From the NCBI GenBank assembly GCA_965601925.1, contig OZ271854.1, positions 4,288,001 through 4,352,000 on the forward strand: a stretch of 64,000 nucleotides of DNA, read 5' to 3'. Below, in pieces: positions 18,297 through 43,187 of this stretch. A program made the position numbers and the translations under genes. Each line of letters starts with the position of its first letter. The stretch's first letter is position 1. The notes under the pieces were generated by a model. That model saw only the letters and a program-made list of their open reading frames with translations. It was not told where the DNA came from and searched no databases. This DNA comes from Alkalispirochaeta sp. GTDB taxonomy: Bacteria; Spirochaetota; Spirochaetia; DSM-27196; Alkalispirochaetaceae.

Positions 18297-18390
18297 CCCT
18301 TCCCGACTCCAATGTATCACGGAGAGCGATACGACAGCTACTCGCGCAAAACGATGCTATATATAGAATAATCGGCATAGAAGCGATAGA

Positions 18391-25356: not shown

Positions 25357-25466
25357 GGCGCCATCTTAGCACGGGCGTGGAAGACCTTGCATAGCGCTCG
25401 CATGCGCCTTCCCGGGGTTCTAGTAGTCGGGACCGGCCGTCGGTGTCGATCACTCAGCAGGCCCTA

Positions 25467-25657
25467 CGGATGCGTTCCTCGTACCTGCGGTACGCATCCG
25501 CCGGGCCAGAAGTCGTGCTCGCCACCGTCGCCCGATCCCGGCGGGTTTTAGCCGGGGAGGCGTGTCCTCAGGGGAACGTTGTAGAGACGGATCGTCAAAT
25601 TCGGTCACTCAACAGGAGGAAGGTTGCGTTCCTCGCCAACGGCTCCGGTACGCAACC
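25467..25657. repeat. Two REP-like imperfect palindromes (25467-25500 and 25622-25657)
   Basis: GGATGCGTTCCTCG-N6-CGGTACGCATCC and GGTTGCGTTCCTCG-N10-CGGTACGCAACC, with a compensatory A-T/T-A swap in the stem. Confidence 0.65.
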
Positions 25658-26092
25658 GACATGGAGTCGCGACCGTCACTGACGACCGGTACCGGCACGG
25701 TGTTGCTGGGATGGCTCGGCCTCAGTCGATGTTGGGGAGATGAATCCATACCGGACGGATACCCACACTACACGGACGAGATGGTGGTGGCTAAGCCTCC
25801 GCCTTTTTCGGGTTGCATCGTCAGTATGGGCGCGCCGTTGTGCAGCCGGCCCATCAACAAATCAATCGTCTCACGAGCGCATTCCGGGATTGGTGTGGAT
25901 CAACTATCGACGGATCGGTCGAGCCGACACGCTTTGTGCGACATTTCTATGCGTGTCGATCCCGATTGAATCGTTGCATGTGCTCGGGTGTCTCTCCATG
26001 ACCGACTCATCGATGCCTCTGCGTTCGGTTTCTCATCGCTTCGTCGCTCCGATGAGGTTTTGGATAACACTAAGTCTCGGCACTTAGGGACG

Positions 26093-27355
26093 CTACGATA
26101 CCCAAAGATCCGAGTCGTACTTCGCGCGGTCGTCACGCAGCAACTTAATGACTTCGTCACCGCGGCCAAGCTCCTCGAATCGGTCATAGAACCCACCGTT
26201 CACGACAAACCAATACAGAACGTATGCGTTGGGCCGGCGAAACGGGGGCATGCTGGACGGGTTCGTCGGGTTAAACTCGCTCATCGGACGGCGCGTCGCC
26301 GCATCCAGCGCATCTTGCAGGGTCGCCAGCGCTCTGTCGTACTGTTCCAGCCCTAAATACGCCATCGCCAACCAATAGTTTCCGCCAACATATTTCGCCG
26401 TCTGAACCATGAGGTACTCGTTATCTCGCTGCTCCGAAGTGAGGTCGACGATCTCCTCGTACTCACCAGTCCGGTACAGTACTTCGAGAATCCGTGAATA
26501 GTAAGACAATCGCCCAATCGAAAGGCGCTCGACATCGATGGTCCGGCTTACCTCGAGCGCTCTATCATAGGCGGCATGCTGAACATAACCGCTGAACACA
26601 TAGAGCCGCGTGTCGTAATCGTTCGCGGCGGCTACCTCTTCTGCCGCAAGCAACGCCCTTATGTGGTAGAAACCAGAGTCAAGATCACCGGCCCGCACAC
26701 TTATGATTTGATCAGCTTCAACCACCGATCGGGCGTCGGGATCAAGAATCGATAGATCATCCGGGTCGACTTGATCCAAGTACGGCGTGTAGTATTCGAT
26801 GGGCGCGATCGACAAGACGTAACGAGGTGATAAGAAACCGGCGAGCGTAAACTCGCGTTCCGTCAACGGTGGCGACGTAGCCATTATGTGCTCTAAGTAG
26901 ATGTTAACAAAGTCTCGAACAGGGTGTGTGTGATGCCAACTCGCCTCGTATAAGTAACTGTAGGTACCTTCAAACGGTCGCCCAGTGACACGACCATACT
27001 CGCGCAAGTACAGCAAACTGTCGATGTCTCGGTCCGCAAGAAGCATTCCGATTCCCATCGTCCGCAGGTATCGTGCATGGTCGTCCTCGAAGACTTCATC
27101 ACGATGATACGAGACAAAGTCCATGAGTTGTGATACGCGTTGTGGCGCATCGAACCGACCCCTGGGAACGACGACCGATCCACGCTCGATACGCTCGAGA
27201 TCGGCTTGCCAATCGTATGGGTATTGCGGCGCGTCGGGGTCATTGCGAACACCGAGCCGCGAAGAACGCGCTGGGCCGCTACACGCGACGAGGCCAATAG
27301 TTACAACCACGATCGCGAGCGCCGCCGGGAGTCGTTTAGTTTTCCAGAAGGCCAC
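26093..27355 (-). CDS. Lipoprotein with TPR-like C-terminus; candidate immunity protein
   Basis: Signal MAFWKTKRLPAALAIVVVTIGLVA-C (lipobox LVAC) and TPR-like YWLAMAYLGLEQYDRALATLQDAL. The start overlaps the giant gene's stop by 20 nt. Visibly lower GC than the flanking genes. Confidence 0.8.
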   Translation of the reverse strand: MAFWKTKRLPAALAIVVVTIGLVACSGPARSSRLGVRNDPDAPQYPYDWQADLERIERGSVVVPRGRFDAPQRVSQLMDFVSYHRDEVFEDDHARYLRTMGIGMLLADRDIDSLLYLREYGRVTGRPFEGTYSYLYEASWHHTHPVRDFVNIYLEHIMATSPPLTEREFTLAGFLSPRYVLSIAPIEYYTPYLDQVDPDDLSILDPDARSVVEADQIISVRAGDLDSGFYHIRALLAAEEVAAANDYDTRLYVFSGYVQHAAYDRALEVSRTIDVERLSIGRLSYYSRILEVLYRTGEYEEIVDLTSEQRDNEYLMVQTAKYVGGNYWLAMAYLGLEQYDRALATLQDALDAATRRPMSEFNPTNPSSMPPFRRPNAYVLYWFVVNGGFYDRFEELGRGDEVIKLLRDDRAKYDSDLWVS

Positions 27356-30300
27356 TGATTAGTTCCTCGTAGTCTCGCACCCATTGATCTGCATCCGCGA
27401 TATCCTGATACGTCGGTCGAGTAAGCGGATCATTGTTGATTCGATACAAATCTTCCAGGTAATCAGGACTCATCAACGAACTGTATCGATAACCGCTTTG
27501 TACCTTTAAGTTTGCCATATTCATGGTTTCAGTATACTCCCGTAGCCAACTCGACGAAGTCAGGCCGGTTAGTGCCTGTGTCCCGGCGTTGAGGCTTTCG
27601 AAGTCAACGTAGCCGGGGACTTCGATGTACTGATCCATCTCGACGCCGGGATATGTCGGAAGAAGGGTATCGGGATCGTATTCTTCTCCCACGATGTCCG
27701 TATCCTTCATGTGACCTCCGTGGAACAGAAGGTTCAACTCGTCGGGGTCGGTGATGCCGTCCTCGTAGATCCGGTCGCCGAGCCACCGATATCGTGAACT
27801 CCCGACTTCGCCGAGCTCCTCGATGTGGGCGTCCCGCATTCCCGGTTCTATTGCAAACGCCAGGTCGATCTCCGCTTCTTCGGCGAGGCCGAAGATTGTG
27901 TTGTCGCGGCCACTCTCGTGGTGCCAAGACGTCTCACCTTCCGGCAACGTAAACAGGTCGAAGATCTCGTTGGCGGCGGTATAGCTTGTCGCGAACGCGC
28001 TGGTCACCCGCGCCGCTTGCGCGGTGATTGCGGCGGTGCTGGCTGTGGTGGCCAGTGCCGTCGCGGTCGTGAGCGTTCTGCTCAATCCGGCAGTTACCAG
28101 TGTTGCCGCAATGGAAACCCCGGATACCAACGCGTTATGCGCAATCTGCTCATCGGAAAGCGGCGCGGCCGACACGTGTCGATGGTGTTCTCGGCCCCTT
28201 ATGTTGGCAAACCACGTTGATACGTTGCGGGCGTCGCCACCGAGCGTGACGTTAAAGAAATTCTCGATCGGCTCGGGCACCGCGTCGAGGGTGGGATACA
28301 CTCCGGCGTATCCGGTCTCCCGCGCTTGCTCCGCGGTAAACGGTCGTGCGTACTGCGGTTGACTTTGGTCGTTTATCTGCCAGTTCTCCGTTGTCCCTAC
28401 CTGCATGTACGTCTCGGCGAGAAACTCCGTGTCGTTCGCGAGTCCATGGGCCACCAGCTGGCTGTAGGTCTCCGCCTGGAAGACGTACGCGACTCCTTCG
28501 ATGGCATTGCCGGCGACGTGCGTTCCTTCGTGGGACATCACTGCCGCGAGTTTTGAGGCGGTATCGGTGTCGTTTGCAAGGAAGCTTTCATCGAACACCA
28601 CGCGGTCGGAGCCGCTCCCGGCGTCGTACATCCCGAGTGCGTCGCCTTCCAGATCACGGAAATCGGCTTGGAGCTCGCGGTTCCACAATGCATCAGCCGT
28701 CAGGTGGTTGTTCTCGATGTTGGTGTACCCGAGACGGTTGACACCATTCAGGATCGCCCGGTTCTCCCGTCCCCGCTGCGTCCCCAACGCTCCACCGACC
28801 TTCGCACCCGTCACTCGTGCGATGTCGCCGATACCCGCAAGACTCTGTCCCACAAGGTCCACACCGACATCGTAGCTCCCACCGCCAACGCCAAATAGTG
28901 CCCCGTTTCCCCCGAGTTGCAGGTTGATCAATCCGCCGGAGAGTCCCTTTCGTTCGAGACCGGTGACAAACGTCCCGTCCGTCGCCGCAGGCACCTCACC
29001 GGGCGCACGTCGGTTGAAGATCCGCGCGTCCAAAATACTCAAGCTCGTACTGCCGTCGATCAGATAATCCGTGGCCGCTCCGATCCCACTCGCCGTCAAC
29101 CTCGCCGCGCTTGAGAGGGCTCGGAGATCGAAGGTGTTGCCCGCCAGCTTGTCACCGATACCGTCGGTCGTCAGGAAGTTCTCCAGCGTGCCGTTCACAA
29201 ACCCCTGCGCCGCGCCGCCGGCGTAGCCCGCTACCGCACTCTCGCCGAACGTCGCGCGGCGAAAACCTCGTTCGTCAAAGTCCACGTCCCAGTCGCCGTC
29301 GATTGAGAAAGAGTTGATGGCGCTGCTCACCGCCGTCGTCGTCACCGCTTGCGCCGTGCTCATCCCCACGTTCACCGCCGTCTGCGTGATCGCCTTGCTG
29401 CCTTCCACGGCCGCCGTCGCCGCCGTTCCCAGTTTGTCGAATCCATAACCTACACCCGCCGTCGCCAAGCTCACCGCCGTGCTCTTCGCGAAGCTGCCAA
29501 AGGCGTCGTCCGCGTCCGCGTATCCGGTCGCCACGTCCGCCATCGTGAAGACCGCATTCGTCGCTACCGATGCGAGAACGGCGCCGAATCCCGCGCCCCC
29601 TGTGGCGATACCCACCGCCACGCTGGTCACCGTCGTGATGTTCGGCGCGCCGAAGAGCCCGTCCGGGTTCCCGTCGTTGTCCGCGTCGTCGTCCCACATC
29701 CGCATCCGGTGCAGTGGTACGTCAATCATCGCCAACCCGCGCCCCACCCGCGCCTCGTTCCGGTAGAAGTCCTCCATGATCCGGCCCATCTCGCCGTAAC
29801 CCGCTTCCCGCACCTCTTCCGGTTTGTTCGTCTTCATTACCGGTGCGTAGCCCACGTGGTAGTTGAACAGTCCCTCCGTATCGTGGTGCAGGTACTCCTC
29901 CTCGCCGCTCTCCTCGTTCTCGCGCGTTCGGTTGTAACCGGCGGCCCGCGTCCAGCTCGCCTCCACCGCTGCAAATCGGTCCGCCAGCGCCCCGTTCAGC
30001 TCCTCGATACTCATCACCGCGGCTCCGTCGGTCTTCTGCGCCTCGCTCCGTCCGAAGATCAGGATCTGGTACCGCTCCATCTCCTCGTACGCCGCGTCGA
30101 TCATTGCCCGTATACCCCGACTCGACAAGCCGTCCAGCGCCTCCTCGGAAAGGTCCACCGTCGCTTCAAACACCGGTACGGTGAAGTCGCGGTAGTCTTC
30201 CACGCGGTGCGTCTCCCGCTCGATCCCGCCGAACAGCGTCTCGTCGATGATTACCCTTCTGTTCCACTCGCGTCCCGATAGCCGGTACCCCGCTCGTTCC

Positions 30301-33300
30301 ATGGTGGTGTCGATGTTCTCCGAGACCGACCGGTTCGCCTCGTCGATTCCGTCATCGACCGCTACGATGCTCTCGCGGATCTGTTCGTTCATCTGCAGCG
30401 CCGTGACCCGCATCGCGTGTTGTTGAATCTCCTCGCCCAGTGCGTCCGCCACGCCGCGAGCGCTCTCGGCGCTGTCGGTGGTCGACCGTACGCCGGGGAG
30501 GTAGGCCGCTATCACCACCGTCTCTCCGGCTCGCCCCGCCATCGCACCCGCGGCGCTGATCATATCGGTCAGGAGCGTATCGTCGGTCGCCTGCCGCACG
30601 GCGAGCTCGAGGTCGCCCGTTTCAATCGTCAGGTCCGGTACGGCGATCGCTTCGCTCCGCGCGATGAGGTACTCGGCGTCTAACCCCATTTGACGCGCCG
30701 CGGCCTCGCTTCCGGCGCGTACCGCGTGGTGCGTCGCGCCGTCGATCCATTCATCTCGGGATACGATGAGCGCTTCGTAACGCAGGTCCCACACCGCCGC
30801 CGCCTCGGCGTACTCTTCGGCGGTCTCTTCTTGAAAGCGTTTGCGCTGGCCCGCCAGACGGATGTATCCGTGATCCCACTCCTCGGCACCCGCGGCGACG
30901 AGGCTCTCCATCCTGTTGCTCCAGCTGTCGTGGCGCCGCGTCAGCGCCTCGTACTCGACGGTGAACTGGTGCACGTACTCCGTCTGTACGCTCGTCATGC
31001 GGGCTGCGGCGGCGTCGTAAATGTGGTTGGAAATAATCGAGAGTTGCACGGCGCGCGCCTCGTCGTTGGTGTTCGCCGGGTCGTCCGCAACGCTCTGGAG
31101 CGACGTAAGGCGGTATGCCATGTGGTCTGCGGTGTCGTAGGTTTGGCCGGCGAAGCGCGCGCGGGCGGCCACCTCCAGGTCCGCCTCGCTTACATCCTCG
31201 CCGCGCAGATAGCGGCCCAACACCTCTTCGTAGTTCACCTGATCGGTGTGTTGCTCGGTCTGCAGTTCGACGACGCGCACGTTCACCGCTTCGCCCGCTG
31301 CAACCATGTCGCGTGCCAGACGCTCCTGCGCCGCGGCCATGACCGAGAGGCTCGTCGCCGTTTCCGAGGCGTTGCCGGTCGCCACCACGTCGCGGATCGC
31401 CTGTTGGAGCCGCGCGGAGGTGCCCGCCACACCCGCCGCGGTCAGCGATGCAATGACCTCGTTTGCGTCGGGACGGTTTCCGGTAATGCGTGCTACATCG
31501 GCGGCCAATGTGTTCTGCTCACCGATGGTTCGACTCCCGTCGGCAAACAGCTGCATCGTGATCGATCTCTGATCCTTGCCCGACAGATCGGGGTCCTGGC
31601 GGCGCAGCTGCTTGATGCGCCGTCCCTCGCGCTTCTTTCCGGGTGAGCGGTACCACTTCGTCAAGCTCCGTTGCCGATCGCGCGCCTCGTCATCGACGAA
31701 GTCGTGCGCAATTTTTGACACGTCGTTGTTTATCGCCCTGACCTGTCTCTGGTCCAACTCGACCGGCCCGCCGCCCTCGGTCAGCATCGCAAAGAAGCGA
31801 TACGCGCCGCGACTCAAACTGGTCGCTCGGACTCGGTTGTAGGCGGCGCGCGTCCGCTGTTCCAGCTCCCAGTTCAACGTTCCCTCCCTGATCGTCAAAC
31901 CGGTATATCTATGAGTGTACGGATCCATTCGCACATTGGCCTTGTCCATCAACTTGACGAAGGTCTGATTGGTCAGAATCGACGCCTCACCCACGCGATG
32001 GTCGTCACCGCCGTACGATCCGGCGTAGTGGATCTCGTAATAGAGCGCCAAGCCCATGTCGTACAACGCGTTGCCGCCCAGTTGATTCATGGCGACCATC
32101 CACGAAGCCATATCGGTCGACAGATTCTCATCCCACTCTCCGGTGAAGTAGGTGTCGGCATCGAAACGGTCTGAATCGGAACTGATGCGCGCGGTGGAGA
32201 CGGAGTCGTAGTCCGGTGAGAAGGAGTACGCGCCGGTGACGAGTTGCGAGGCGGTACGTGCAATCGATGCACGGCTGGCCTGAAGCGCGCCTTCGGCCTC
32301 GGCGGTTTGCCGACCCAACGTCTCGCTCGCCACCGCTCCCTCTTGGTAGGCGTTCATGGTCTCCGCTTCGGTGCTCACCAGATCGACGTACTCGTCGTCG
32401 CGAGTGGCGTCGGTCACCTCATCGGCGTTCGCCACCACCAGCGCCAGCGCGGTGCGGGTGCGTTCCAGCTCGGCTGTGCGTTCGGCCACCACCGCTGCAG
32501 GGTCGATTTCGGCGGTCATGTACCCGGTACGCGCGTAGTCCATGATCTCCTCGGCTTCCTGCATCGCGCGACGCGTATCGGTGTAGGCCAGCTGCGCGGC
32601 GTCGACGTCCGCCGCTCTCTCCTCGTAGGTAGTCACGGCGGCTTCGAACGCTGCGATCGCACCATCGTACTCTCGGCGCGCACCATTCACCGCCTGTCGT
32701 TGGCGTTCCACGTCGTCGCGCAACGGCTCGACCACGTCGATCACGTATTGCTCGATATTGCTCTGGAATGCGTTCTTCACCTCGTAGGTGTCAGCCAAAT
32801 CGACCAACGCCCCCAAATACGTCGCTTCGGCACCGAGAAACATACGGCGTTCCTCCGCCCGCCGCTCGTATGCCGACTCCTCGGCGACCACCGTGGTGAC
32901 ATCATCGGCGTCTTCGGCATCGAGCGTCGCGACTGCGTCGTCGATGACATCGATTACCGACGAGCTGTCTATGCCGCCGATGACTTCCGATGCGGTCGTT
33001 AAGTGGTGATAGGTACTCTGCGCCGAGTCGTCCAACAATCCCCGAAGCCATACCGCGCCGGCGTTCCGCACCGCCAGCACGTCGTACTCCGCGCGAAGCG
33101 TCGCGACGCTCGCCGGGTCGTGACTCCCGCCGACAGCGGCGGCGGCCGCCTCGCGTTCCATCTCGGTCGCCTCGGGACTCTCAAGCGTATACAGCGCCCC
33201 CTCCAACGCCTCGAGACGCACGCCGTTCTCGGCCGCGCCGACGAATGCAACGTTCGCACTCCCACCGGCCTCGGCGATACGCGCCTGAGTGTAGACGCCT

Positions 33301-36300
33301 AATAGGTCAACTACCGCCGTCGGTACGTGGTCCAGTGCGATCAGTTCCTCGTACATCGCGCGTAGCTCGCCGATCGTGGGTTCGGGTGTATCGGGTGTGT
33401 CGATGTTCACCAGAGGCGCGACGATCAGCTCAACCTGGAGCTGGTAGGCCACGGTATACGAACGCAGCGTGCTGATAGATACATCTTCAAAGGCGTTCCA
33501 CGCCTCCTGAGCCTCCTGCATATACGTTAGACGAACACGCTCTGGTCTTATGAGATCGTCAATCAAGACCGAGTAGTCCGTTGCAAAGTCGACGTCGCGC
33601 TCTCCGGTTCGAAACACCAGAATCGCGGTCCGCGCCTCTTCGGAATCACCGACGATTGTCGCCTCATCGATCGCCACCGCACCGGGGTCGAACACGATGT
33701 ACGCCACGCCGGGGGGCGGCTCGCCGAGCCCCGTCCCGTCTCCGACGATATAGACCGTGCCGATCGTCGGGTCCGCCGGGATCCCGCCGGCGTCCGCGAC
33801 CTCCACCACCACCGGATCGTCCGGCGCCGGCGGAAGCCCCGCATCGATCGCCGCCGCGCGTGCCTCGTCGTACGCCGTAGCGATCGCATCCTGCCTCGCC
33901 GTCGCGATAGCTTCGCTCTCAGCGGTCACCAGTGCCTCATAGTGCTCCTGAATCGCCAGCCGTGCGGCGTCCTCCGCGCTGTGCAACGCCGTCTGCGCGT
34001 CGGCAATATCCTCGCCGTGGAACGTTTCTAAGGCGTCGATCTCTTCCTGGTACAACCACGTTTGCTCTTCGGTGTATACGCGCCCTTCCAGCACATCGAT
34101 CGCGTACTCCGTGCGCGCCACATCCAGTCGCGCCCGATCGGCGAGATCGGCCAGCATGCGCTCGGCCGACAACTCGCGCAGACGACGCTCCGCGCTGCCT
34201 TCGCCTACCGCCAAGGCAGAATCGATCGCCGCCACAAGGTCGAGATACGCCGGCGCACCGGCATCCAGCCCCGCGTCGGTGACGGACTGGGTGAATCCAT
34301 CCGCCGTTACCGTCGTCCAATCGATCGACAAGCTCTCCAACGCTTCCACCGCGGTCGTCAACTCGGTCAAATCGGTGTATTCGTCGGTCTCCGCCTCTTC
34401 GTGCCCCGCCAGGTCGGCGGCGATCTCCATCGCCGTCTGCCACCGATCGGCGGCCAACGCGTCTGCGTCCGCTTGGGCGTACGTCTCGGCCCCGGCATCG
34501 CGCCCTTCACCGGCATGCCCTACTGCAGCGTCTTCCAGCGCCTCGATCAGGTTGTCGTAGACCCCGGCGTCCTGGAGCCGCCGCGCCTCCTCGGCCGCCG
34601 CCAACTCGGCGGTCAACCGGTCCAACTCCGCCTCCGCGATGTTCAACGCATTTTGCTTCTCCGCCAAGGCGGTTTGGACGCTCGGCAGCACCGTGTTGGT
34701 TATCGCCTCAAGTTCCCCGATCGCCGCCAAAAACGCCGCTTCGGCATCCTCGAACGCCGCCACCTCCGCGGCGTAGCGCGCCTCGGTCTCGGCCAATGTG
34801 GCGCGGTCCGAGGAGGTATCCGCCGCGTATGCGGCCACCGCCTCGGCGATCGCGAGCTGGCTCTCTAATGACTCGACCATACCGTTCAGACGAGCGATCT
34901 CCACCTCGCCGGAGCTCAACGCCGCCCCGTAGGTGTCCAGCGCGCCGAACATCCCGTGTAGATCGGCCTGCGCCTCGTCGCGCATCAGCTCGAAATCCGC
35001 GAGCACTCCGCCTGCTCCATCGGGTCCACGCCAGTACGCCAACTCCCGATTCACCGACGCCAGATTCTCGTCGATCATCCCGAGCTGCACGTCGATCAGA
35101 TTGATATCCATCACGATGCCGGCGATCGGCGCTTGGCGATCGTGCCGGGTCACTCCCAATCGCCCCTGCAGCCATGCGACCCACGCTCCCTGATGTGCGG
35201 CGCCCTGCACATAGTTTTTCAGCCGCCTATTCCGCTCGAAGGCGGTTTCGTTGCGAGTACGCTCGTCGGTGTCGCCGTTACTCTGTTTGTAGGTGTATTC
35301 GATTACGCGCGCCGGAAGCACCGACGGGTTGTATCCTTGGAGAAAGTCCTCTACGAGACCGTCGTTCTCCTCGTGCCCTCCGTCGGCAAAGGCGTGGTAC
35401 CGCGCGTTCGCAATCGCGCGCTCTCTATTTGTGCGTTGATCACGGTAGGTCGTCCGGTCCCCTTCCAGGACCTCCTTCATTCCTTCCAGCGCGGCGATGT
35501 TCTCTTCCGCCATCGCCACCACGTCGGCCGCTTGGCGATACACCGCCAGATAGGCGTCCGACTCGGCGCGTACTTTGGCCAGCTCCTCTTCCGACGCACG
35601 CGCAAGTTCAATCATCGTCTCACTGAACGCGGCGTCAAACGATGCCGTCGTCCGTGCCCACGCGTCCTCACCCTCGCGCCAGACCGACTCCATCTCCGCG
35701 ATCCAGCCCGAACGTGCCACGGTGAACTCGTCCAACGCCTCGTCCCACGCCGCCTCCGCCTCGCGATACTGCTCCTGCGCCTCCGACTCCCACGCCATCC
35801 GTTCGGCGATAAATCGCTCCTCGGCACCGTTCCACGCACTCAATCCCCGCGCAAACTCCGCCTCAAAGCTCTCCTGCCACGCCTCCGCCTCTATCCGCGC
35901 CTCGCCCACATCCGCGTCACCCTCCGGTACCAACGCCGCCAGATGCGCGCTCACCTCGTCCAACCTCACCTGCGTGTCGCGAATCAACCGCCCCGCCGTC
36001 GACCGCGCCGTCTCCTCCTCCGCCTGCCGCCGCATGCTGTAGCTGTCCTGCAACCGCCCCTGCGCCAGCCGCCGGCTCGATCGTATCACCTGCGACCGAA
36101 ACTCCCGCTCGATATGCGCCTTGTACTCGCCCACCGATACCGCCAGCTCGCTCGCCACCCTCTCCCGCACCGCGCCCTCAAACGTTCCCAACACCTCCGT
36201 CGCCGTCGCCTCCGCGCTCGCTTCCCACGCCGTGTACAACGCCGCAAACGCATCCTCGACCTCCGCCTCCCACGCCGCCGCGGCCGCCTCGTATCCCTCC

Positions 36301-36689
36301 GCACCCTGCAGGATCACATCCCCCGCCTCGTCGAAGGTGTACTCACCCCCGCCGTCGGTCTCGTACAGATATCGCCGATTCGCCGCATCGATCGCGCGCC
36401 GCAGCCCCGCCGCGTCGAACCGCGCCACCGACCGCTCCCATTCCGCCTCGACCACCCGGCCCAGACTCGCCGCCCACCGGTCGCCCAAGGCCGCCGTCTC
36501 CCACTCGTCCAGTCCCCCCAGGCCGATCCCCGTCACCGCCTGCCACTCCGCGATGCTCCCGCTGCGACTCGCCCGCTCGTACACCCCTTCGCCGACGACG
36601 TGATCGCCCGTCTCAACGTCGTCCGGCATCTGTCCGACGACCGTTCCCGTGCATGCCGCGATCAGTACTGCGATTCCTATTCGTCTCAT
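27336..36689 (-). CDS. Giant (3117 aa) exported coiled-coil protein with HExxH metallopeptidase motif; candidate polymorphic toxin
   Basis: Uninterrupted 9.35-kb ORF with RBS (GAGAGGA), N-terminal signal peptide, long Ala/Glu helical body, hydrophobic Gly/Ala helices and HEGTH at aa 2720-2724. The CDS is secure but the function is inferred. Confidence 0.85.
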   Translation of the reverse strand: MRRIGIAVLIAACTGTVVGQMPDDVETGDHVVGEGVYERASRSGSIAEWQAVTGIGLGGLDEWETAALGDRWAASLGRVVEAEWERSVARFDAAGLRRAIDAANRRYLYETDGGGEYTFDEAGDVILQGAEGYEAAAAAWEAEVEDAFAALYTAWEASAEATATEVLGTFEGAVRERVASELAVSVGEYKAHIEREFRSQVIRSSRRLAQGRLQDSYSMRRQAEEETARSTAGRLIRDTQVRLDEVSAHLAALVPEGDADVGEARIEAEAWQESFEAEFARGLSAWNGAEERFIAERMAWESEAQEQYREAEAAWDEALDEFTVARSGWIAEMESVWREGEDAWARTTASFDAAFSETMIELARASEEELAKVRAESDAYLAVYRQAADVVAMAEENIAALEGMKEVLEGDRTTYRDQRTNRERAIANARYHAFADGGHEENDGLVEDFLQGYNPSVLPARVIEYTYKQSNGDTDERTRNETAFERNRRLKNYVQGAAHQGAWVAWLQGRLGVTRHDRQAPIAGIVMDINLIDVQLGMIDENLASVNRELAYWRGPDGAGGVLADFELMRDEAQADLHGMFGALDTYGAALSSGEVEIARLNGMVESLESQLAIAEAVAAYAADTSSDRATLAETEARYAAEVAAFEDAEAAFLAAIGELEAITNTVLPSVQTALAEKQNALNIAEAELDRLTAELAAAEEARRLQDAGVYDNLIEALEDAAVGHAGEGRDAGAETYAQADADALAADRWQTAMEIAADLAGHEEAETDEYTDLTELTTAVEALESLSIDWTTVTADGFTQSVTDAGLDAGAPAYLDLVAAIDSALAVGEGSAERRLRELSAERMLADLADRARLDVARTEYAIDVLEGRVYTEEQTWLYQEEIDALETFHGEDIADAQTALHSAEDAARLAIQEHYEALVTAESEAIATARQDAIATAYDEARAAAIDAGLPPAPDDPVVVEVADAGGIPADPTIGTVYIVGDGTGLGEPPPGVAYIVFDPGAVAIDEATIVGDSEEARTAILVFRTGERDVDFATDYSVLIDDLIRPERVRLTYMQEAQEAWNAFEDVSISTLRSYTVAYQLQVELIVAPLVNIDTPDTPEPTIGELRAMYEELIALDHVPTAVVDLLGVYTQARIAEAGGSANVAFVGAAENGVRLEALEGALYTLESPEATEMEREAAAAAVGGSHDPASVATLRAEYDVLAVRNAGAVWLRGLLDDSAQSTYHHLTTASEVIGGIDSSSVIDVIDDAVATLDAEDADDVTTVVAEESAYERRAEERRMFLGAEATYLGALVDLADTYEVKNAFQSNIEQYVIDVVEPLRDDVERQRQAVNGARREYDGAIAAFEAAVTTYEERAADVDAAQLAYTDTRRAMQEAEEIMDYARTGYMTAEIDPAAVVAERTAELERTRTALALVVANADEVTDATRDDEYVDLVSTEAETMNAYQEGAVASETLGRQTAEAEGALQASRASIARTASQLVTGAYSFSPDYDSVSTARISSDSDRFDADTYFTGEWDENLSTDMASWMVAMNQLGGNALYDMGLALYYEIHYAGSYGGDDHRVGEASILTNQTFVKLMDKANVRMDPYTHRYTGLTIREGTLNWELEQRTRAAYNRVRATSLSRGAYRFFAMLTEGGGPVELDQRQVRAINNDVSKIAHDFVDDEARDRQRSLTKWYRSPGKKREGRRIKQLRRQDPDLSGKDQRSITMQLFADGSRTIGEQNTLAADVARITGNRPDANEVIASLTAAGVAGTSARLQQAIRDVVATGNASETATSLSVMAAAQERLARDMVAAGEAVNVRVVELQTEQHTDQVNYEEVLGRYLRGEDVSEADLEVAARARFAGQTYDTADHMAYRLTSLQSVADDPANTNDEARAVQLSIISNHIYDAAAARMTSVQTEYVHQFTVEYEALTRRHDSWSNRMESLVAAGAEEWDHGYIRLAGQRKRFQEETAEEYAEAAAVWDLRYEALIVSRDEWIDGATHHAVRAGSEAAARQMGLDAEYLIARSEAIAVPDLTIETGDLELAVRQATDDTLLTDMISAAGAMAGRAGETVVIAAYLPGVRSTTDSAESARGVADALGEEIQQHAMRVTALQMNEQIRESIVAVDDGIDEANRSVSENIDTTMERAGYRLSGREWNRRVIIDETLFGGIERETHRVEDYRDFTVPVFEATVDLSEEALDGLSSRGIRAMIDAAYEEMERYQILIFGRSEAQKTDGAAVMSIEELNGALADRFAAVEASWTRAAGYNRTRENEESGEEEYLHHDTEGLFNYHVGYAPVMKTNKPEEVREAGYGEMGRIMEDFYRNEARVGRGLAMIDVPLHRMRMWDDDADNDGNPDGLFGAPNITTVTSVAVGIATGGAGFGAVLASVATNAVFTMADVATGYADADDAFGSFAKSTAVSLATAGVGYGFDKLGTAATAAVEGSKAITQTAVNVGMSTAQAVTTTAVSSAINSFSIDGDWDVDFDERGFRRATFGESAVAGYAGGAAQGFVNGTLENFLTTDGIGDKLAGNTFDLRALSSAARLTASGIGAATDYLIDGSTSLSILDARIFNRRAPGEVPAATDGTFVTGLERKGLSGGLINLQLGGNGALFGVGGGSYDVGVDLVGQSLAGIGDIARVTGAKVGGALGTQRGRENRAILNGVNRLGYTNIENNHLTADALWNRELQADFRDLEGDALGMYDAGSGSDRVVFDESFLANDTDTASKLAAVMSHEGTHVAGNAIEGVAYVFQAETYSQLVAHGLANDTEFLAETYMQVGTTENWQINDQSQPQYARPFTAEQARETGYAGVYPTLDAVPEPIENFFNVTLGGDARNVSTWFANIRGREHHRHVSAAPLSDEQIAHNALVSGVSIAATLVTAGLSRTLTTATALATTASTAAITAQAARVTSAFATSYTAANEIFDLFTLPEGETSWHHESGRDNTIFGLAEEAEIDLAFAIEPGMRDAHIEELGEVGSSRYRWLGDRIYEDGITDPDELNLLFHGGHMKDTDIVGEEYDPDTLLPTYPGVEMDQYIEVPGYVDFESLNAGTQALTGLTSSSWLREYTETMNMANLKVQSGYRYSSLMSPDYLEDLYRINNDPLTRPTYQDIADADQWVRDYEELISGLLEN

Positions 36690-36925
36690 CTTCGTCCTCT
36701 CTCTATCGCTCGTCGTCGTCTCGGCCGACCGGCCTTCCCGCGTGCGTCCGTCGCACTACGATCGAACGCACCCTCCGCCCACGCCGCACCGGCGTCGCGC
36801 GGAGCATGCGCCCGTCGAAATCCTGGGATCACTCGAGATGGTCCTATCGCCTCCACGCGCACCACACGCTCACCGAGCCCGTGCCGCACCGTATACGGAG
36901 ATTTCACTGTGTTTGACTTGCTTTC

Positions 36926-36934
36926 ACTATATCA
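36926..36934 (-). promoter_or_regulatory. Extended -10 promoter element for the giant gene
   Basis: TGaTATAGT on the minus strand inside an AT-rich intergenic patch (36900-37050), about 230 nt upstream of the ATG. Confidence 0.5.
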
Positions 36935-37374
36935 CATCGCGCGTCTGAATAAAAGGAATACCAACACAATAACTGCTGATCACTCGTTATGTATCCAATA
37001 ATGTAATTCATGGCGCCAAACAATCATTCTCTATTGGATGCGGCGAACCTACTCTTTCGCTTCTCGATAATGCAGGTTGATGAGGGGGTGCCCGGTCGTC
37101 GGTGAGCGCTGCCGTTCGATCGCGGGGGAGTGTCGCAGAGGATGCCTTGTCCTATCACGGATGGGTGGCGATCGGGGCGTCAATGAATCGTGCCCGTTCC
37201 GTTCGCGATGCAACCGCCGCCGTCGGAGAGATGAAAAGAGAGCGTGAGTCGGACCGCTCCCGACGAAAATATTCTTGACGCGTAGGTGAATAAATATCGA
37301 AACCATCGCCTCGCGGGTTGATTTTCGCACGCCTTTTGCGCACTTTAAGAGCAAGAACATACAAGGAGGAAGGT

Positions 37375-38382
37375 ATGCGCAAGATTTTGCTGGCAGGAGT
37401 CATATTCTGTCTCGTTACCGGTTTCGTCATGGCCGGGGGCCAAGGGGAGGCCGACGACGGACCGCGTTTCGTGACGATTGGAACCGGCGGTGTAACCGGC
37501 GTCTACTACCCGACCGGCGGCGCGATTAGCCGCATGGTAAACGCCAGAAGCGACGAGTACGGTATTCGCGCGTCGGTAGAGTCCACCGGAGGAAGCGTAT
37601 TCAATATCAATGCGGTGCTCGCCGGAGATCTCGAGTTCGGCATCGCACAATCCGACAGGCAGTACCAGGCACTCAACGGCATGGCCGAATGGGACGGCAA
37701 TCCCCAGGACAGACTGCGATCGGTCTTCACCATTCATCCTGAGGCGATCACGTTGATTGCATCGGTCGACAGCGGTATCGAGACGGTCGCGGACCTCGAA
37801 GGTATGCGTGTGAACATCGGCAACCCCGGTTCGGGACAGCTGCAGAACTCCCTCGATGTGCTCGGCGCCTTCGGGCTCTCCCAGGATGATGTTCAGGCGG
37901 AGCAGGTCGGCGCGGTTGAGGCTCCGAGTCTCCTGCAGGACGGCCGAATCGACGCGTTTTTCTACACCGTCGGTCACCCGAACGGAAACATCACCGAAGC
38001 GACCAGCGGCCGTATCGGCGTACGAATCGTAGACATCACCGGCGGCGACATCGACGCTCTTTTGGCGCGTCTGCCGTACTACGCCGTCGCCCAGATTCCG
38101 GCGCGGTTCTATCCCCAGGCGGCCAACACGGGGGATGCAACGACCGTCGGTGTTAAGGCGACCTTCGTTACCTCCGCCGACGTTCCCGACGATGTGGTGT
38201 ATGCGATCACCAAGGAGGTCTTCGACAACCTGGAAGACTTCAAGTCGCTGCATCCGGCCTACGCGGTACTCACTGCGGAGAATATGCTGGAAGGTATGTC
38301 GGCACCGCTTCATCCCGGAGCCGTCCGGTACTACGAAGAGGCGGGCATGATCGATATGATAAATCCCGACCTTCTCAACTAG
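37375..38382 (+). CDS. TAXI-family TRAP transporter solute-binding protein
   Basis: Strong RBS AAGGAGG, IGTGGVTGVYYPTGG, STGGSVFN and PLHPGAVRYY. Confidence 0.93.
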   Translation: MRKILLAGVIFCLVTGFVMAGGQGEADDGPRFVTIGTGGVTGVYYPTGGAISRMVNARSDEYGIRASVESTGGSVFNINAVLAGDLEFGIAQSDRQYQALNGMAEWDGNPQDRLRSVFTIHPEAITLIASVDSGIETVADLEGMRVNIGNPGSGQLQNSLDVLGAFGLSQDDVQAEQVGAVEAPSLLQDGRIDAFFYTVGHPNGNITEATSGRIGVRIVDITGGDIDALLARLPYYAVAQIPARFYPQAANTGDATTVGVKATFVTSADVPDDVVYAITKEVFDNLEDFKSLHPAYAVLTAENMLEGMSAPLHPGAVRYYEEAGMIDMINPDLLN

Positions 38383-38410
38383 AAATTCGGACACCGTTCG
38401 CTTTTCCAAG

Positions 38411-38451
38411 AGCGGGCGCGCGACGCCACGTCCGGTGTCACGCGCCCGTTT
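38411..38451 (+). terminator. Stem-loop after the TAXI binding-protein gene (terminator or mRNA-stabilising hairpin)
   Basis: AGCGGGCGCGCGACGCC / GGTGTCACGCGCCCGTTT inverted repeat with only a short T run. Confidence 0.55.
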
Positions 38452-38577
38452 GTCACATTAAACGGGGGGAGGCACCTCGCGACGCTCCTCCGGAGTCATC
38501 GAACATGCACCGTAACGCTTTACCAAGAGAAAGACTCAGCGTGACCTCGAGGGTTTTGAGAGGTGCCGGAGGGATTC

Positions 38578-40623
38578 ATGGCGGAGAATAGGGATCTCGA
38601 ACGTATTTTGCAGCAAGAGACGGGAATCACTCGCGTATATCGCCGCTTCGATCGCATACTCATTACCGCGGTCAGCCTCGCGTGGGCGCTCTTTCAGCTC
38701 GCCCTACCGCGATTATTGATTCTCGACAGCATCACGGTGCGTTCGATGCACCTGGCGTTTGCTATGATGCTCGTATTTCTCGGCGTCCCGATAACACGAA
38801 AGCGCGCCCGGGACATTCCGGGATTACACTCCCTCAAACACACGCCGCTCATCGACTTTTTCGTAGCTGCGATTGCGGTCGTCGCGGCGTTGTACATCGT
38901 ACTCGACTGGGACGGCATTACCACCCGTATGGGTATTCCGACGACGCGCGACCTGGTCATGAGCGTGGCGCTCATTCTCCTACTCTTCGAGGCATCCCGG
39001 CGCGGTATCGGTATGCCCATGGTCATCATCGCCATCGTGTTCACCCTCTACGCCTTTTTCGGTCGCCGCATGCCGGGTATCCTCGCATGGCGCGGCGTGA
39101 GTCTCACTCGCTACACGAGTCAGATCGTCCTCTCCACGGAGGGTATTTTCGGCATCCCCCTCGACGTATCGGCACGCACGGTGTACCTCTTCGTCCTCTT
39201 CGGTGCCCTTCTGGAACAGTTCGGCGCGGGACACTTTTTCAACGACCTCTCCATCTCGCTCTTGGGGAAATACAAGGGCGGACCGGCAAAGGCGGCGGTC
39301 GTCTCAAGCGGCTTCACCGGTCTCGTATCGGGTTCGAGCATCGCTAACGTCGTGACAACCGGTACCTTTACCATTCCGCTCATGCGTAAGGTCGGCTATC
39401 CGGCTAAAACGGCCGCGGCCACCGAGGTGGCGGCGAGCACCAACGGACAACTCATGCCGCCGATTATGGGTGCCGCAGCGTTCATCATCGCCGAATACCT
39501 CGCGATGTCATACTTCGAGGTGATACGTGCGGCGTTCATACCGGCATTCGTGAGCTACATTGCGCTGTTTTACATCACCCATCTCGAGGCGTCCAAACTG
39601 GGTTTGCGCGGTCTTGCCGAGGAGGATGTTCCGCGCTTTTTTTCGGTGCTGAAACGGGGATATCACCATCTCATTCCCCTTTTTGTCTTGATCTACGAGC
39701 TCGCGGTACTGCGCCGCAGTCCCAACCTTGCGGTCTTTAACGCGATCGCGATTCTAGTGGCGATATATATCGTGCGCGAGGTGTTTTCCGCCGTGCGAGC
39801 CAAGACGGGCGCATGGTCGACGGCACGCACAATTGTAGCGTCTATCGGAAACGGCCTGGTAACGGGCAGTAAGAACATGCTTCCTGTAGCACTCGCCACC
39901 GCCACGGCGGGTATCATCGTCGGCATCGTCAATATGGGCATCGGCAGCCGCATCGTGCAAATGGTCGAGGTGCTGTCGATGGGGAACATCTTCCTGTTGT
40001 TATTCATCACCGCGGTAGTGAGCCTCATCATCGGCATGGGTCTGCCGACCACGGCGACCTATATCGTTATGGCGTCCATCACGGTCCCGGTCATCACGAC
40101 CCTCGGCGCCGATATCGGGCTCATTATCCCGGCAATCGCGGCGCATCTGTTCTGCTTCTATTTCGGGATTCTCGCCGACGACACGCCGCCGGTAGGTCTC
40201 GCGGCGTACGCCGCCGCGGCGATCGCAAAGTCTGACCCCATTCCCACCGGTATCAAAGGGTTTATCTACGACTTACGCACGGCGGTTATTCCCTTTATGT
40301 TCGTATTCAACCCGATGCTCCTGCTTATCGGATCGGAGGGATGGCTCCAGGGCATCATGGTCTTCATCTCCGCCGCCGGGGGAATGCTCGCCTTCACCAA
40401 TGCGGTGCAGGGATGGGCCCTCACGTCCAATAAGTGGTTCGAAGTGCCGGTGTTTCTCCTCGCCGCGGGATTGTTCTTTCTACCCAACGTCTTTGTCTCC
40501 GTAACGGGCATCGACCCATCGCGCTATTATCTGGCCTATCCCCTCGCGATCGTCGCCTACGCCCTCGCCTTCGGAAGCCAAAAGCTGCGGCTGCGTCTAC
40601 AGGCCCGTGAGGTACCGGCGTAG
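38578..40623 (+). CDS. TRAP transporter fused permease (4TM/12TM, TAXI-type)
   Basis: GGPAKAAVV, SGSSIANVVTTGTFTIPLM, GMGLPTTATYI and ADDTPPVGLAAYAAA. Confidence 0.93.
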   Translation: MAENRDLERILQQETGITRVYRRFDRILITAVSLAWALFQLALPRLLILDSITVRSMHLAFAMMLVFLGVPITRKRARDIPGLHSLKHTPLIDFFVAAIAVVAALYIVLDWDGITTRMGIPTTRDLVMSVALILLLFEASRRGIGMPMVIIAIVFTLYAFFGRRMPGILAWRGVSLTRYTSQIVLSTEGIFGIPLDVSARTVYLFVLFGALLEQFGAGHFFNDLSISLLGKYKGGPAKAAVVSSGFTGLVSGSSIANVVTTGTFTIPLMRKVGYPAKTAAATEVAASTNGQLMPPIMGAAAFIIAEYLAMSYFEVIRAAFIPAFVSYIALFYITHLEASKLGLRGLAEEDVPRFFSVLKRGYHHLIPLFVLIYELAVLRRSPNLAVFNAIAILVAIYIVREVFSAVRAKTGAWSTARTIVASIGNGLVTGSKNMLPVALATATAGIIVGIVNMGIGSRIVQMVEVLSMGNIFLLLFITAVVSLIIGMGLPTTATYIVMASITVPVITTLGADIGLIIPAIAAHLFCFYFGILADDTPPVGLAAYAAAAIAKSDPIPTGIKGFIYDLRTAVIPFMFVFNPMLLLIGSEGWLQGIMVFISAAGGMLAFTNAVQGWALTSNKWFEVPVFLLAAGLFFLPNVFVSVTGIDPSRYYLAYPLAIVAYALAFGSQKLRLRLQAREVPA

Positions 40624-43187
40624 TGGCGGAACATCGCGTCTACCGCGAAGAGGTGGACCTTAAATACCAAATCTTCAACGGCCTCTTTCTAAGCTTGCCC
40701 TTTCAGCACGTCCGACGGGCCGGCATTCTTCTGCCCGTCTTCGTCGAGCGTGCCAAGCGCCTCCTCGCCGACGGGGTCGATCCGGTGCGGATCGTCGACA
40801 GCTTTTTCGACGATCAACTCGTCGAGTACTCGCCTGCAGACCGCATGGCGATTCTCTTTCGATTCGTCCAACTCGTGGAGCGCCAAGTCGTGTTGTTCGA
40901 CGCGTTGGAGGACGCCGCCTTTTCTCACGTGCACGATATGGAGGGCGTCGGCACCTTAAACGAGACGCTCGCCCGCATCATCCAGGCGGAACGCCGTCCC
41001 GAGCTCGCGCAAATCGTCTCTGACTTTCGCGTGCGTATCGTTCTGACGGCTCATCCCACGCAGTTTTATCCCAGTCGCGTGTTGGGCATCATTACCGACC
41101 TCATCGACGCGTTGGCGAAAAACGACATATCGCGGATCTACAACTATCTGTTACAACTCGGCAAAACGCGCTTCGGCAATCGACGCAAGCCGAGCCCCAT
41201 GGACGAGGCACGAAGCCTCCTGTGGTATCTGGAGAATGTGTTCTACCACACCTTTCCCGGCGTCCACGCCCGCATTGCGACCGAGTCCCGCCCCACTATG
41301 GGCGAGGCGCTCGATCTGAAACCGATCGTAGAAGTCGGATTCTGGCCCGGAGGAGACCGCGACGGCAACCCCTTCGTCGACGCCAAAACGACGTGGGAAG
41401 TCGCCACCACCCTGCGAAGAAGCATTCTCTCCCTGTACCTCGCCGACGTGGAGATCTTGGCGCGTCGCCTCACTTTCGACGGTGCGATCGACCGCATACG
41501 ATCCATTCGCGCGCGGCTGCGCGCGACCCTCCGCGGTCACTGCGAGGACTCGGACGCGCCCCCCTTCGAGAGGCCCTCGGAACTCAAAGAGGCGCTCGTG
41601 GAGCTGTGGCAACACCTTCACGAAAAACACGACGGACTGTTCGTGGAACCCCTCGAGTCGCTCATTTGGCGCGTACAGGTATTCGGATTTCACTTCGCGA
41701 CCCTCGATATCCGCCAGGATAGCCGCATCCACGGACGTATCGTCGCAGCGGCGATCGGAGACGGGGAGACACTCACACTAGCCGGTGTGACGCGAGCTCT
41801 CGCCGACGGAGTGATCCCCGCGTATGCTGCGGTGGAGAAGATGGTCGCCGACGATGCGGTTCTTTTGGACACCATTCAATCGATACGCGTCGCCCGGGAG
41901 ATCCAGGGCGAGGGAGGCGAACGTGCGCTCCATCGCTACATCATCTCCAACACCCGCGGCGCCGCCGATGTTATAGCCGTGTACCTCCTTGCGCGCATTG
42001 CCGGCTACCCCGAGGGCGGGGTGGACCTCGATATCGTGCCGCTCTTCGAGACGGTAGACGACCTTCGTTCCGCTCCCGAGATCATGCGGACGCTCTATGA
42101 GATGCCGTTGTATCGCGGCCACTTGAAACGGCGCGGCGAGACGCAACAGATCATGCTCGGCTTCTCCGACGGTACGAAGGACGGCGGCTACGTCACGGCC
42201 AACTGGCTCATCTATCGCGCCCGCGAGGATCTTACGGCGTGTGCGGCGCGCTACGGCATCAACGTGGTCTTCTTCGAAGGGCGCGGCGGTCCTCCGGCCC
42301 GGGGAGGCGGTAAGACGCACCAATTCTATCGTGCCATGAGCCGTCTGATGGCGCGTAATCAGATTCACCTCACGATCCAGGGGCAAACGATCAGTTCCAA
42401 CTTCGGAACCGTCGACGCGGCGCGTTTCAACCTCGAGCAGCTGGTAACCGCGGGGCTGGAGAATCTTATCCTGTCGGATGACTACCAGGATCTCACCGAC
42501 GAGCAGCGCACACTCATCGACACCATGAGCGCGCACAGTCTCGAAGCGTATCGTACGCTGAAGCGTCATCCCCAGTTCATGCCGTATCTCGAGCGGATGA
42601 CGCCGTTGATCTACTACGGTCAGGCGAACAACGCGTCACGCCCCACCAGCCGCGGAAGGCGGGATTCGCTGCGCTTGGAGGATCTCAGAGCGATCCCCTT
42701 TGTCGGGGCGTGGAGTCAGATGAAACAGAACGTACCGGGCTATTTCGGATTCGGAAGCGCTCTACAGCACCTCATCGCAGAGGGTCATCTCGAGGATCTG
42801 CGTCGGTTGTACCGCTCTCACCTCTTCTTTCGGACGCTGGTAGAAAACAGCATGCAGAGCCTCAGTAAGGTAAGTTTCGATCTTACGCGCTTCATCTCGA
42901 ACGATCGGCAGTTCTCGCAAATATGGGGCATTCTCGAAGAGGAGACGACGAGAACGCGGGATATGTTGCTCCGGATCGCCGACGCCGAGCGGCTGCTCCC
43001 GAACGACCCGTCGCTCCAGGCGTCAATCGCCCTGCGGGAGTCCATTATTCTGCCCGTTCTGGTGATTCAGCAATACGCTCTTGCGAGAATCCGCGGCGAT
43101 ACGGCGGAGGACGAGGCCGCAAGCCTCAAAAAACTCGTGGTCAAATCGATGGCCGCGATCGTAAACGCCGGGCGCAACTCGGTGTGA
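40623..43187 (+). CDS. ppc: Phosphoenolpyruvate carboxylase
   Basis: VLTAHPT, GGDRDGNP, LDIRQDS, VPLFET, MLGFSDGTKDGG, GRGGPPARGGG, LRAIP and C-terminal GRNSV. Confidence 0.95.
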   Translation: MAEHRVYREEVDLKYQIFNGLFLSLPFQHVRRAGILLPVFVERAKRLLADGVDPVRIVDSFFDDQLVEYSPADRMAILFRFVQLVERQVVLFDALEDAAFSHVHDMEGVGTLNETLARIIQAERRPELAQIVSDFRVRIVLTAHPTQFYPSRVLGIITDLIDALAKNDISRIYNYLLQLGKTRFGNRRKPSPMDEARSLLWYLENVFYHTFPGVHARIATESRPTMGEALDLKPIVEVGFWPGGDRDGNPFVDAKTTWEVATTLRRSILSLYLADVEILARRLTFDGAIDRIRSIRARLRATLRGHCEDSDAPPFERPSELKEALVELWQHLHEKHDGLFVEPLESLIWRVQVFGFHFATLDIRQDSRIHGRIVAAAIGDGETLTLAGVTRALADGVIPAYAAVEKMVADDAVLLDTIQSIRVAREIQGEGGERALHRYIISNTRGAADVIAVYLLARIAGYPEGGVDLDIVPLFETVDDLRSAPEIMRTLYEMPLYRGHLKRRGETQQIMLGFSDGTKDGGYVTANWLIYRAREDLTACAARYGINVVFFEGRGGPPARGGGKTHQFYRAMSRLMARNQIHLTIQGQTISSNFGTVDAARFNLEQLVTAGLENLILSDDYQDLTDEQRTLIDTMSAHSLEAYRTLKRHPQFMPYLERMTPLIYYGQANNASRPTSRGRRDSLRLEDLRAIPFVGAWSQMKQNVPGYFGFGSALQHLIAEGHLEDLRRLYRSHLFFRTLVENSMQSLSKVSFDLTRFISNDRQFSQIWGILEEETTRTRDMLLRIADAERLLPNDPSLQASIALRESIILPVLVIQQYALARIRGDTAEDEAASLKKLVVKSMAAIVNAGRNSV

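Follow-up and report, generated by a model that had tools for sequence, protein, structure and literature searches.

A giant carrier protein and coupled lipoprotein of Alkalispirochaeta sp. as a probable satellite pair of a spirochaete polymorphic effector-immunity system with a candidate export machine

The 64,000-nucleotide (nt) stretch of Alkalispirochaeta sp. DNA analysed here (contig OZ271854.1, positions 4,288,001 to 4,352,000; the window) contains a gene for a signal-bearing protein of 3117 amino acids (aa) and, overlapping its end, a gene for a lipoprotein, and the question raised by this locus is what so large a protein serves for and by what route it could leave the cell. An earlier note on the same DNA had proposed a polymorphic toxin-immunity system with an undescribed means of delivery. 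The variable tips, orphan tip-plus-partner cassettes and tip-partner co-variation described below support the first part of that proposal as far as genome comparison can take it, and an operon for resistance-nodulation-division (RND), adaptor, TolC-family and immunoglobulin-like (Ig) lipoprotein components provides a concrete candidate for the second. The reading preferred here, with rather better than even confidence, is of a polymorphic effector-immunity system of spirochaetes, equipped with an export machine of its own and represented in the window by a satellite effector/immunity pair. Taken separately, it appears highly probable that the family is a polymorphic antibacterial system and, granted this, likely that the RND operon would be its exporter.

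The gene pair and the parts of the giant protein are located as follows in window coordinates:

36689-27336 (-): giant carrier-effector gene P0001, an open reading frame (ORF) of 3117 aa with two full paralogues in the same genome
36633..36689 (-): Sec signal peptide, not a conserved lipobox; a signal-like hydrophobic stretch is present in family N-termini
35700..36632 (-): conserved N-terminal domain with a Trp-rich helical repeat, from paralogue identity and matches in giants of other classes
30240..35699 (-): acidic Ala/Glu-rich helical stalk, from composition, an internal repeat and the family consensus
28833..30239 (-): conserved core with GLF..HVGYAP, GEMGRIM and WDDD motifs, then Gly/Ala hydrophobic helices, from the family alignment
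28356..28832 (-): zincin-like HExxH..E domain, a candidate self-processing peptidase, from motif conservation
28347..28355 (-): junction at which conservation stops, QYA here against a DYW consensus; candidate cleavage or exchange point
27336..28346 (-): variable tip of 336 aa (aa 2782-3117), one of a 12-protein tip family
27355-26093 (-): lipoprotein gene of 420 aa, overlapping the giant gene, with Cys25; putative cognate immunity protein

Two further full-length copies of the giant gene are present in this genome, paralogue B at C1:1348297 and paralogue C at C1:4161678, which match the window protein as far as aa 2782 and aa 2747, respectively, and then diverge. Beyond aa 2800 the window tip is no more than 20% identical to the paralogue tips, thereby bearing out within one genome the variable C-terminus that had been claimed, and the same diversity extends across the 136 tips considered below. 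Orphan ORFs follow both B and C, each starting in the conserved core, carrying a different tip and preceding a signal-bearing gene; those of locus B contain DNA blocks 86-99% identical to each other and to the full gene. Since matches of the orphan cassettes to the giant begin at aa 2150, 2282, 2311 and 2506, all inside the core, that segment is likely to act as a recombination handle, and is likely also to be the membrane-crossing segment. Standalone cassettes of this kind, with their own partners and carrier homology for recombination, occur at loci B and C and, as tip-plus-partner arrays, in six other genomes (G030, G356, G335, G350, G028 and G004). At the window locus itself no orphan cassettes were seen.

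Individual arrays were of varied content. Locus B (G000:C1:1323000-1348300; L020, L021) combines an M23-like tip on the full gene with two M23-like orphans and one Cys-His orphan, and an IS3-like transposase gene stands there beside a duplicated tip fragment, whose partner gene comes next in a diverged copy. Locus C (G000:C1:4142500-4161700; L022) has a Pfam M23 tip, orphans with an HExxH tip and an LD-transpeptidase-like tip, and extra stand-alone partner genes. A compact array in G004 (contig C72; L098:1-9800) holds at least five tip-plus-lipoprotein pairs, several reduced to tip fragments, with tips that are M23-like, of the window's own tip family, Cys-His, and M15 with a Kelch partner.

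A word-based search returned 22 long proteins, query included, and a profile of the core matched 721 clusters (50% identity), 353 of them at E 1e-30, with the best 150 of the 721 being retrieved. All nine named records returned for the core were spirochaetal, and the core was present in 28 of 401 genomes of the phylum, representing 18 genera. When 163 proteins were examined, the HE motif was found in 140 and tips were obtained from 136, falling into at least 35 groups, some of them of truncated proteins. Loose sorting of 122 tips by motif, with classes named after the motifs, yielded 30 Cys-protease-like, 29 LD-transpeptidase-like, 23 M23-like, three HExxH and 37 other tips. Two groups were also picked by hand: all 25 members of the LD-transpeptidase-like group keep H, G and C, and of the 29 Cys-protease-like members 28 keep C and all keep H. 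Most family tips had no Pfam match; those above Pfam cut-offs belong to toxic enzyme families, namely M23 (P0004, P0098), NlpC/P60 (P0121), M15_4 (a cassette of G004) and PT-TG (P0014). A minority of tips (P0014, P0048, P0055) have a nuclease-like or cytoplasm-acting look, and two partners (L035:12860-13708 and L036:4798-5448; ankyrin, zinc ribbon) are without a signal, which together suggest that some tips reach the cytoplasm.

The genes downstream of the tips were likewise found to vary. Fetched loci provided 44 tips, of which 43 had a downstream ORF. An N-terminal hydrophobic stretch was present in 41 of these 43 partners, a count to be read with the facts that the procedure used to pick partner starts favoured hydrophobic ones and that one of the 41 resembles an insertion-sequence gene; a lipobox-like motif occurred in 24/43, and GC content was below that of the tip in 39/43. 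Pairs of similar partners also had similar tips in 23 of 37 cases, compared with a background of 57/903 pairs and a maximum of nine in 2000 shuffles. Judged by these comparisons, partner family co-varies with tip family, and across homologues neither the C-termini nor the downstream genes are conserved. The partner folds include leucine-rich repeat (LRR), ankyrin, RCC1, Kelch, PQQ, FGE-sulfatase, SH3 and F5/8-like types. Partners of LD-transpeptidase-like tips (L048:6931-8019, L049:11300-12262, L060:12808-13995, L022:1567-2583) have in common an F5/8-type domain, with Pfam NADase_transloc above cut-off, and constitute a candidate new immunity family.

As to the route of exit, the operon associated with the giants comprises by Pfam, in both this genome and G356, OEP, HlyD, two Big_5, two ACR_tran and tetratricopeptide repeat (TPR) proteins, and thus contains the outer-membrane factor (OMF), adaptor and AcrB-family subunits by which a tripartite exporter is recognised. 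In the regions upstream of 16 full-length giant genes a full RND pair was found in 11, a partial set in one and none in four, the 11 having, within the limits of each fetched stretch, adaptor, TolC-family, Ig-like and TPR genes alongside two AcrB-family genes. The operon occurs once in this genome (G000:C1:1348685-1361426; L075), as does its Ig pair. The operon is divergent from paralogue B, and it is because this one copy is 3 Mb from the window that the window gene is regarded as a satellite. Use of the operon in trans by the window copy would have parallels in G314 and G457, in which it is also distant from the giant genes. A further TPR lipoprotein gene was observed after the operon on the opposite strand.

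Co-occurrence was scored in 87 genomes taken to represent the window's class (families f8, f10 and f12-f21 of the 401-genome sample) with an Ig gene as marker and an author-chosen E cut-off of 1e-25. Marker and core were found together in 17 genomes, the core alone in five, the marker alone in none and neither in 65, so that none of the 65 giant-less genomes had the marker; eight of the 17 double-positive genomes had trained the marker profile, and kin are not independent. Among the five core-only genomes, three had orphan-sized ORFs alone. In other classes the whole operon adjoins the giant in 4/4 genomes selected from the marker scan, the N-domain profile matched at E 2e-12 to 2e-40, and one such giant also has the hydrophobic core (profile match, probability 95.8%). 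These genomes (G343, G190, G229, G325; L103, L106, L108, L109) represent a third branch of giants, orphan cassettes being present there too. The first Asp of the fourth transmembrane segment, a putative proton-relay residue located by motif, is kept in 13/13 RND1 and 7/7 RND2 subunits of the window's class, and in 0/4 RND2 subunits of the family bearing the TIGR04388 giants (vide infra), where the alignment is poor.

That the operon accompanies giants in several classes of the phylum, that its marker is absent from the 65 giant-less genomes of the window's class, and that a signal peptide plus a periplasm-capturing pump offers a coherent two-step route all argue against the most durable alternative, which is considered unlikely. 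This accepts the polymorphic toxin system and denies that the RND operon is its exit: the operon would instead anchor, chaperone or energise the giant within the envelope, or export a small co-factor, and the giant would reach its targets by vesicles, lysis or surface export of the spirochaete lipoprotein type. In its favour, the operon link consists of gene neighbourhood and co-occurrence alone, and both RND subunits score far below the named NCBIfam RND cut-offs. TolC channels are not known to pass a folded protein of 3000 aa, and the preferred reading offers no explanation of how so large a cargo would pass or be held, which gives this alternative its weight.

Appreciably less probable is a non-weapon envelope scaffold, in which the tips reshape the wall of the cell that makes them or break down peptidoglycan from the surroundings as food, the lipoproteins being regulators. 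It would suit the predominance of wall peptidases among recognisable tips and the export of both gene products. It is opposed by the silent orphan tip-plus-partner arrays, by unrelated partner folds matched to tip family, by the GC drop at tips, by nuclease-like tips with PT-TG (P0014), by the patchy distribution (28/401 genomes) and by the retention of orphans in genomes that yielded neither carrier nor machine (G028, G030, G362), all of which suit an arms race better than housekeeping.

The giant protein itself is built largely as had been described: the 3117-aa ORF, the HEGTH motif and the lipoprotein gene overlapping its stop are all present. The lipoprotein gene, its ORF overlapping that of the giant by 20 nt, is evidently translationally coupled to it. 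Neither the giant nor the 420-aa lipoprotein matched a Pfam or NCBIfam family at its cut-off. Signal-like hydrophobic stretches were found in 54 of 61 family N-termini, in agreement with the proposed export signal. The IAAC lipobox suggested with it is not supported: because Cys13, the sole Cys of the giant, is not conserved among the 61, a signal-peptidase-I signal is likelier, probably cut near aa 19/20. Identity among the three paralogues is 98-100% over residues 1-300, compared with 24-82% for the remaining protein, and this N-terminal domain may be the docking domain for the export machine. The stalk has the Ala/Glu-rich composition ascribed to it, contains the Trp-rich repeat once more near aa 1920-2000 (internal repeat E 6e-4), and would form a rod.

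Hydrophobic 19-aa windows (Kyte-Doolittle, KD, >= 1.3) start at aa 2353-2370 (~29633-29526), inside the interval of ~29300-29640 given for the hydrophobic helices, and again at aa 2849-2853. HEGTH (aa 2720-2724; 28532-28518) is the only HExxH of the giant and has its conserved downstream Glu at aa 2731, a combination by which a zincin (gluzincin-like) peptidase is recognised; H2720, E2721 and E2731 are at 99-100% across 140 aligned members. One family member scored 20.2 bits against Peptidase_M48 (cut-off 20.3), and the nearest named Atlas clusters, M48, Tox-MPTase4 and M91 at 0.79-0.83, serve as leads only. The junction consensus has D in 83% at aa 2779 and W in 76% at aa 2781, with tips diverging beyond.

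The window tip clusters with 11 other proteins among the 136 tips, orphans included. It contains a long hydrophobic helical segment (~28154-27951), and 19-aa KD windows of >= 1.3 occur in 6/12 of its family as opposed to 8/115 other tips; the structure predicted for it is of low quality (pLDDT 51) and shows aa 2846-2913 as a long helical hairpin. That this tip damages membranes, specifically the inner membrane from the periplasmic side, is a tentative assignment held at a little under even confidence. GC at third codon positions (GC3) falls from 0.74 to 0.53 at the 3' end of the giant gene, corresponding to the tip. At Cys25 the lipoprotein carries LVAC, a lipobox-like motif, and it is helical/TPR-like, with weak sub-cutoff TPR matches at aa 326-355. 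Two homologous tips of known context (G028 and G004), from another branch of the tip family and 18% identical to the window tip, are followed by lipoproteins of 414 and 407 aa that resemble each other and that the window lipoprotein matches in size class and lipobox, without detectable homology. The window lipoprotein is putatively the immunity protein of the window tip, a role that rests on position and family pattern because it has neither homology to those partners nor a database homologue.

Least probable of the alternatives is that, in a family of toxins, the window copy has a harmless tip, one that serves adhesion or recognition or has decayed, and a lipoprotein that is not its immunity protein: a tip lacking catalytic signature and fold match, a lipoprotein not homologous to the partners of two homologous tips and a locus without orphans would agree with this, whereas neither the ORF nor HEGTH..E is disrupted, 12 proteins, orphans among them, share the tip family, and both context-known homologues, themselves of a different branch, precede lipoproteins of similar size.

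Several results weigh against the preferred effector-immunity reading and are set beside the limits on partner starts and on the marker profile given above, and beside the size of the giant relative to a TolC channel. The second His of HExxH is His in 50/140 members and Arg in 90/140, and three complete giants of other classes (G343, G190, G229) have no HExxH at all. The window tip family has few invariant residues, few polar ones among them, and the window tip gave no Pfam, PDB or fold match. Comparison of the window lipoprotein with the G028 and G004 partners, pairwise or by their two-sequence profile, revealed no homology, and no homologue was found among ~8000 scored candidates. No experiment on any family member was found.

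Should the effector-immunity reading be correct, the ~340-kDa carrier, with the signal seen at its N-terminus, would cross the inner membrane by Sec. A dedicated machine built from a TolC-family channel, a long adaptor in the periplasm, two different AcrB-family subunits and Ig-like and TPR lipoproteins would capture it there via the N-domain and, as gene linkage suggests, bring it across or onto the outer membrane, with the one operon at G000:C1:1348685-1361426 serving all three carriers. The stalk would then reach a neighbouring cell, the hydrophobic core would cross or insert into the target outer membrane, and the zincin domain would free the tip at the DYW junction. To judge from motifs and Pfam matches, most tips would act in the target periplasm as peptidoglycan peptidases; that of the window copy would most likely damage the inner membrane from the periplasmic side. 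The coupled exported protein, consistent with its observed co-variation with the tip, would protect producer and kin. The observed architecture also suggests that tip and partner may be swapped jointly by core recombination with downstream orphan cassettes.

No description of the carrier family, cassette arrays or machine was found in the literature, most subscription papers and all supplements lying outside the search. If the proposal is true, spirochaetes would possess a dedicated interbacterial weapon, RND pumps would be extended from small-molecule efflux to giant-protein export, and the longest unassigned proteins of Leptospira-type genomes would be accounted for. The family also offers a large set of new candidate peptidoglycan-peptidase/inhibitor pairs, and several tip families without assigned activity.

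Two further features flank the gene pair:

36690..36999 (-): upstream region, probable common promoter/leader, in DNA common to paralogues B and C
25430..25557 (unstranded): degenerate hairpin-repeat copy, with related copies at orphan-cassette boundaries of loci B and C

Over ~320 nt, the DNA upstream of the giant gene is 94% identical to that of paralogue C and 82% to that of paralogue B. A same-sample assembled contig, not independent support, spans 25436-29235 with 0 differences, and the link between tip and lipoprotein is therefore no assembly join. The flanks, reported in the earlier note as AT-rich or structured, are not AT-rich overall (GC 0.60 downstream and 0.56 upstream, with a single 200-nt patch at 0.47), and structure was confirmed downstream as a hairpin with 19-bp arms. 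The hairpin is related to a 170-290-nt element with some ten more copies at unrelated places in the genome, and such a repeat may help to acquire or mark cassettes. The isolation of the pair between housekeeping operons is correct within the window, the remainder of the system being elsewhere in the genome. By eye, the region 37318-43187, divergent from the giant gene, holds ordinary housekeeping functions, namely TAXI-type TRAP transporter genes and phosphoenolpyruvate carboxylase. An exported 1006-aa protein of helical/TPR-like appearance (15300-18320, minus strand) is divergent from a 425-aa protein (18391-19668, plus strand) with a PorV/beta-barrel-type outer-membrane look and a C-terminal TPR, both also assigned by eye.

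Among known systems, CdiA/CdiB combines a Sec-exported giant stalk, a variable tip, a cognate immunity gene and orphan modules, CdiA being a beta-helical FHA filament with a TpsB partner and mostly cytoplasmic immunity. The window giant differs in its acidic helical stalk, its lack of a TpsB partner and its presumed periplasmic immunity. No Pfam or NCBIfam match to FHA, YD/RHS, LXG, MuF, PAAR, VgrG or HINT was found in the giant or 16 relatives, in line with the stated lack of FHA, YD repeats, PAAR, VgrG, LXG and intein.

Polymorphic toxins, in the accessible portion of a published survey, have a constant carrier, a variable C-terminal domain, standalone toxin-immunity cassettes and a linked immunity gene, with a processing peptidase ahead of the tip and LD-peptidase tips listed (Zhang et al. 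2012, PMC3482391). The giant family agrees in its constant body, variable tip and standalone toxin-immunity cassettes; it differs in that wall peptidases predominate among its tips and the partners are exported, and in that no RND/TolC tripartite machine is among the secretion routes named in that portion of the survey (PMC3482391). Enterotoxin STII is Sec-exported and then taken out of the periplasm by MacAB-TolC, the same two-step logic as that proposed here (PMC5985334). The giant-linked operon differs in having RND rather than a MacB energiser, together with Ig-like and TPR lipoproteins, and its proposed cargo of 2500-4200 aa contrasts with the small peptide STII, a further point against that proposal. 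MdtABC-TolC is a heteromeric RND pump whose operon encodes two distinct RND subunits, as does the giant-linked operon (PMC8277102).

A close parallel is with the giant signal-bearing proteins of TIGR04388 (Lepto_longest): the same operon, OMF-Ig-TPR-membrane fusion protein-RND-RND, adjoins 9 of 15 loci counted, a sixteenth stretch, a 539-nt contig end, having been dropped. Their operons have one Ig lipoprotein where the giant-linked operon here has two, and many of the proteins carry an intein-like HINT where the window giant has its HExxH domain; the Leptospira giant LA_3725, for example, is described as having a pre-toxin HINT domain, PT-HINT (PMC4751964). No intein or HINT match in Pfam or NCBIfam precedes the window tip, the only Cys of the protein being at aa 13. 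At its curated 45-bit cut-off, the TIGR04388 model matched neither the window giant nor its genome; a genome search with it placed two family members below cut-off at 28.7 and 22.4 bits, with nothing in hmmscan at E 0.01, and in two genomes it weakly matched, below cut-off, the same ORFs as the giant core profile. The giant core was found in 0/80 genomes of a family, apparently Leptospiraceae, in which the TIGR04388 model matched 63/80. The giant N-domain profile matched 5/11 TIGR04388-type proteins at E 6e-6 to 1.6e-4, a weak stalk similarity, its best unrelated ORF in this genome being at 0.089 and no reversed control matching; the reciprocal stalk search was weak, and the bridging giants gave no direct match to the TIGR04388 side. 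The common operon is accordingly the stronger link. It is an evenly balanced possibility that both belong to a phylum-wide, hitherto undescribed spirochaete secretion and antagonism system in which a heteromeric RND pump with TolC, long adaptor and Ig lipoproteins collects Sec-exported helical carriers of 2500-4200 aa in the periplasm and displays them for delivery of interchangeable antibacterial tips, the TIGR04388 giants forming an intein-processed branch and the window family a zincin-processed, periplasm-targeting one.

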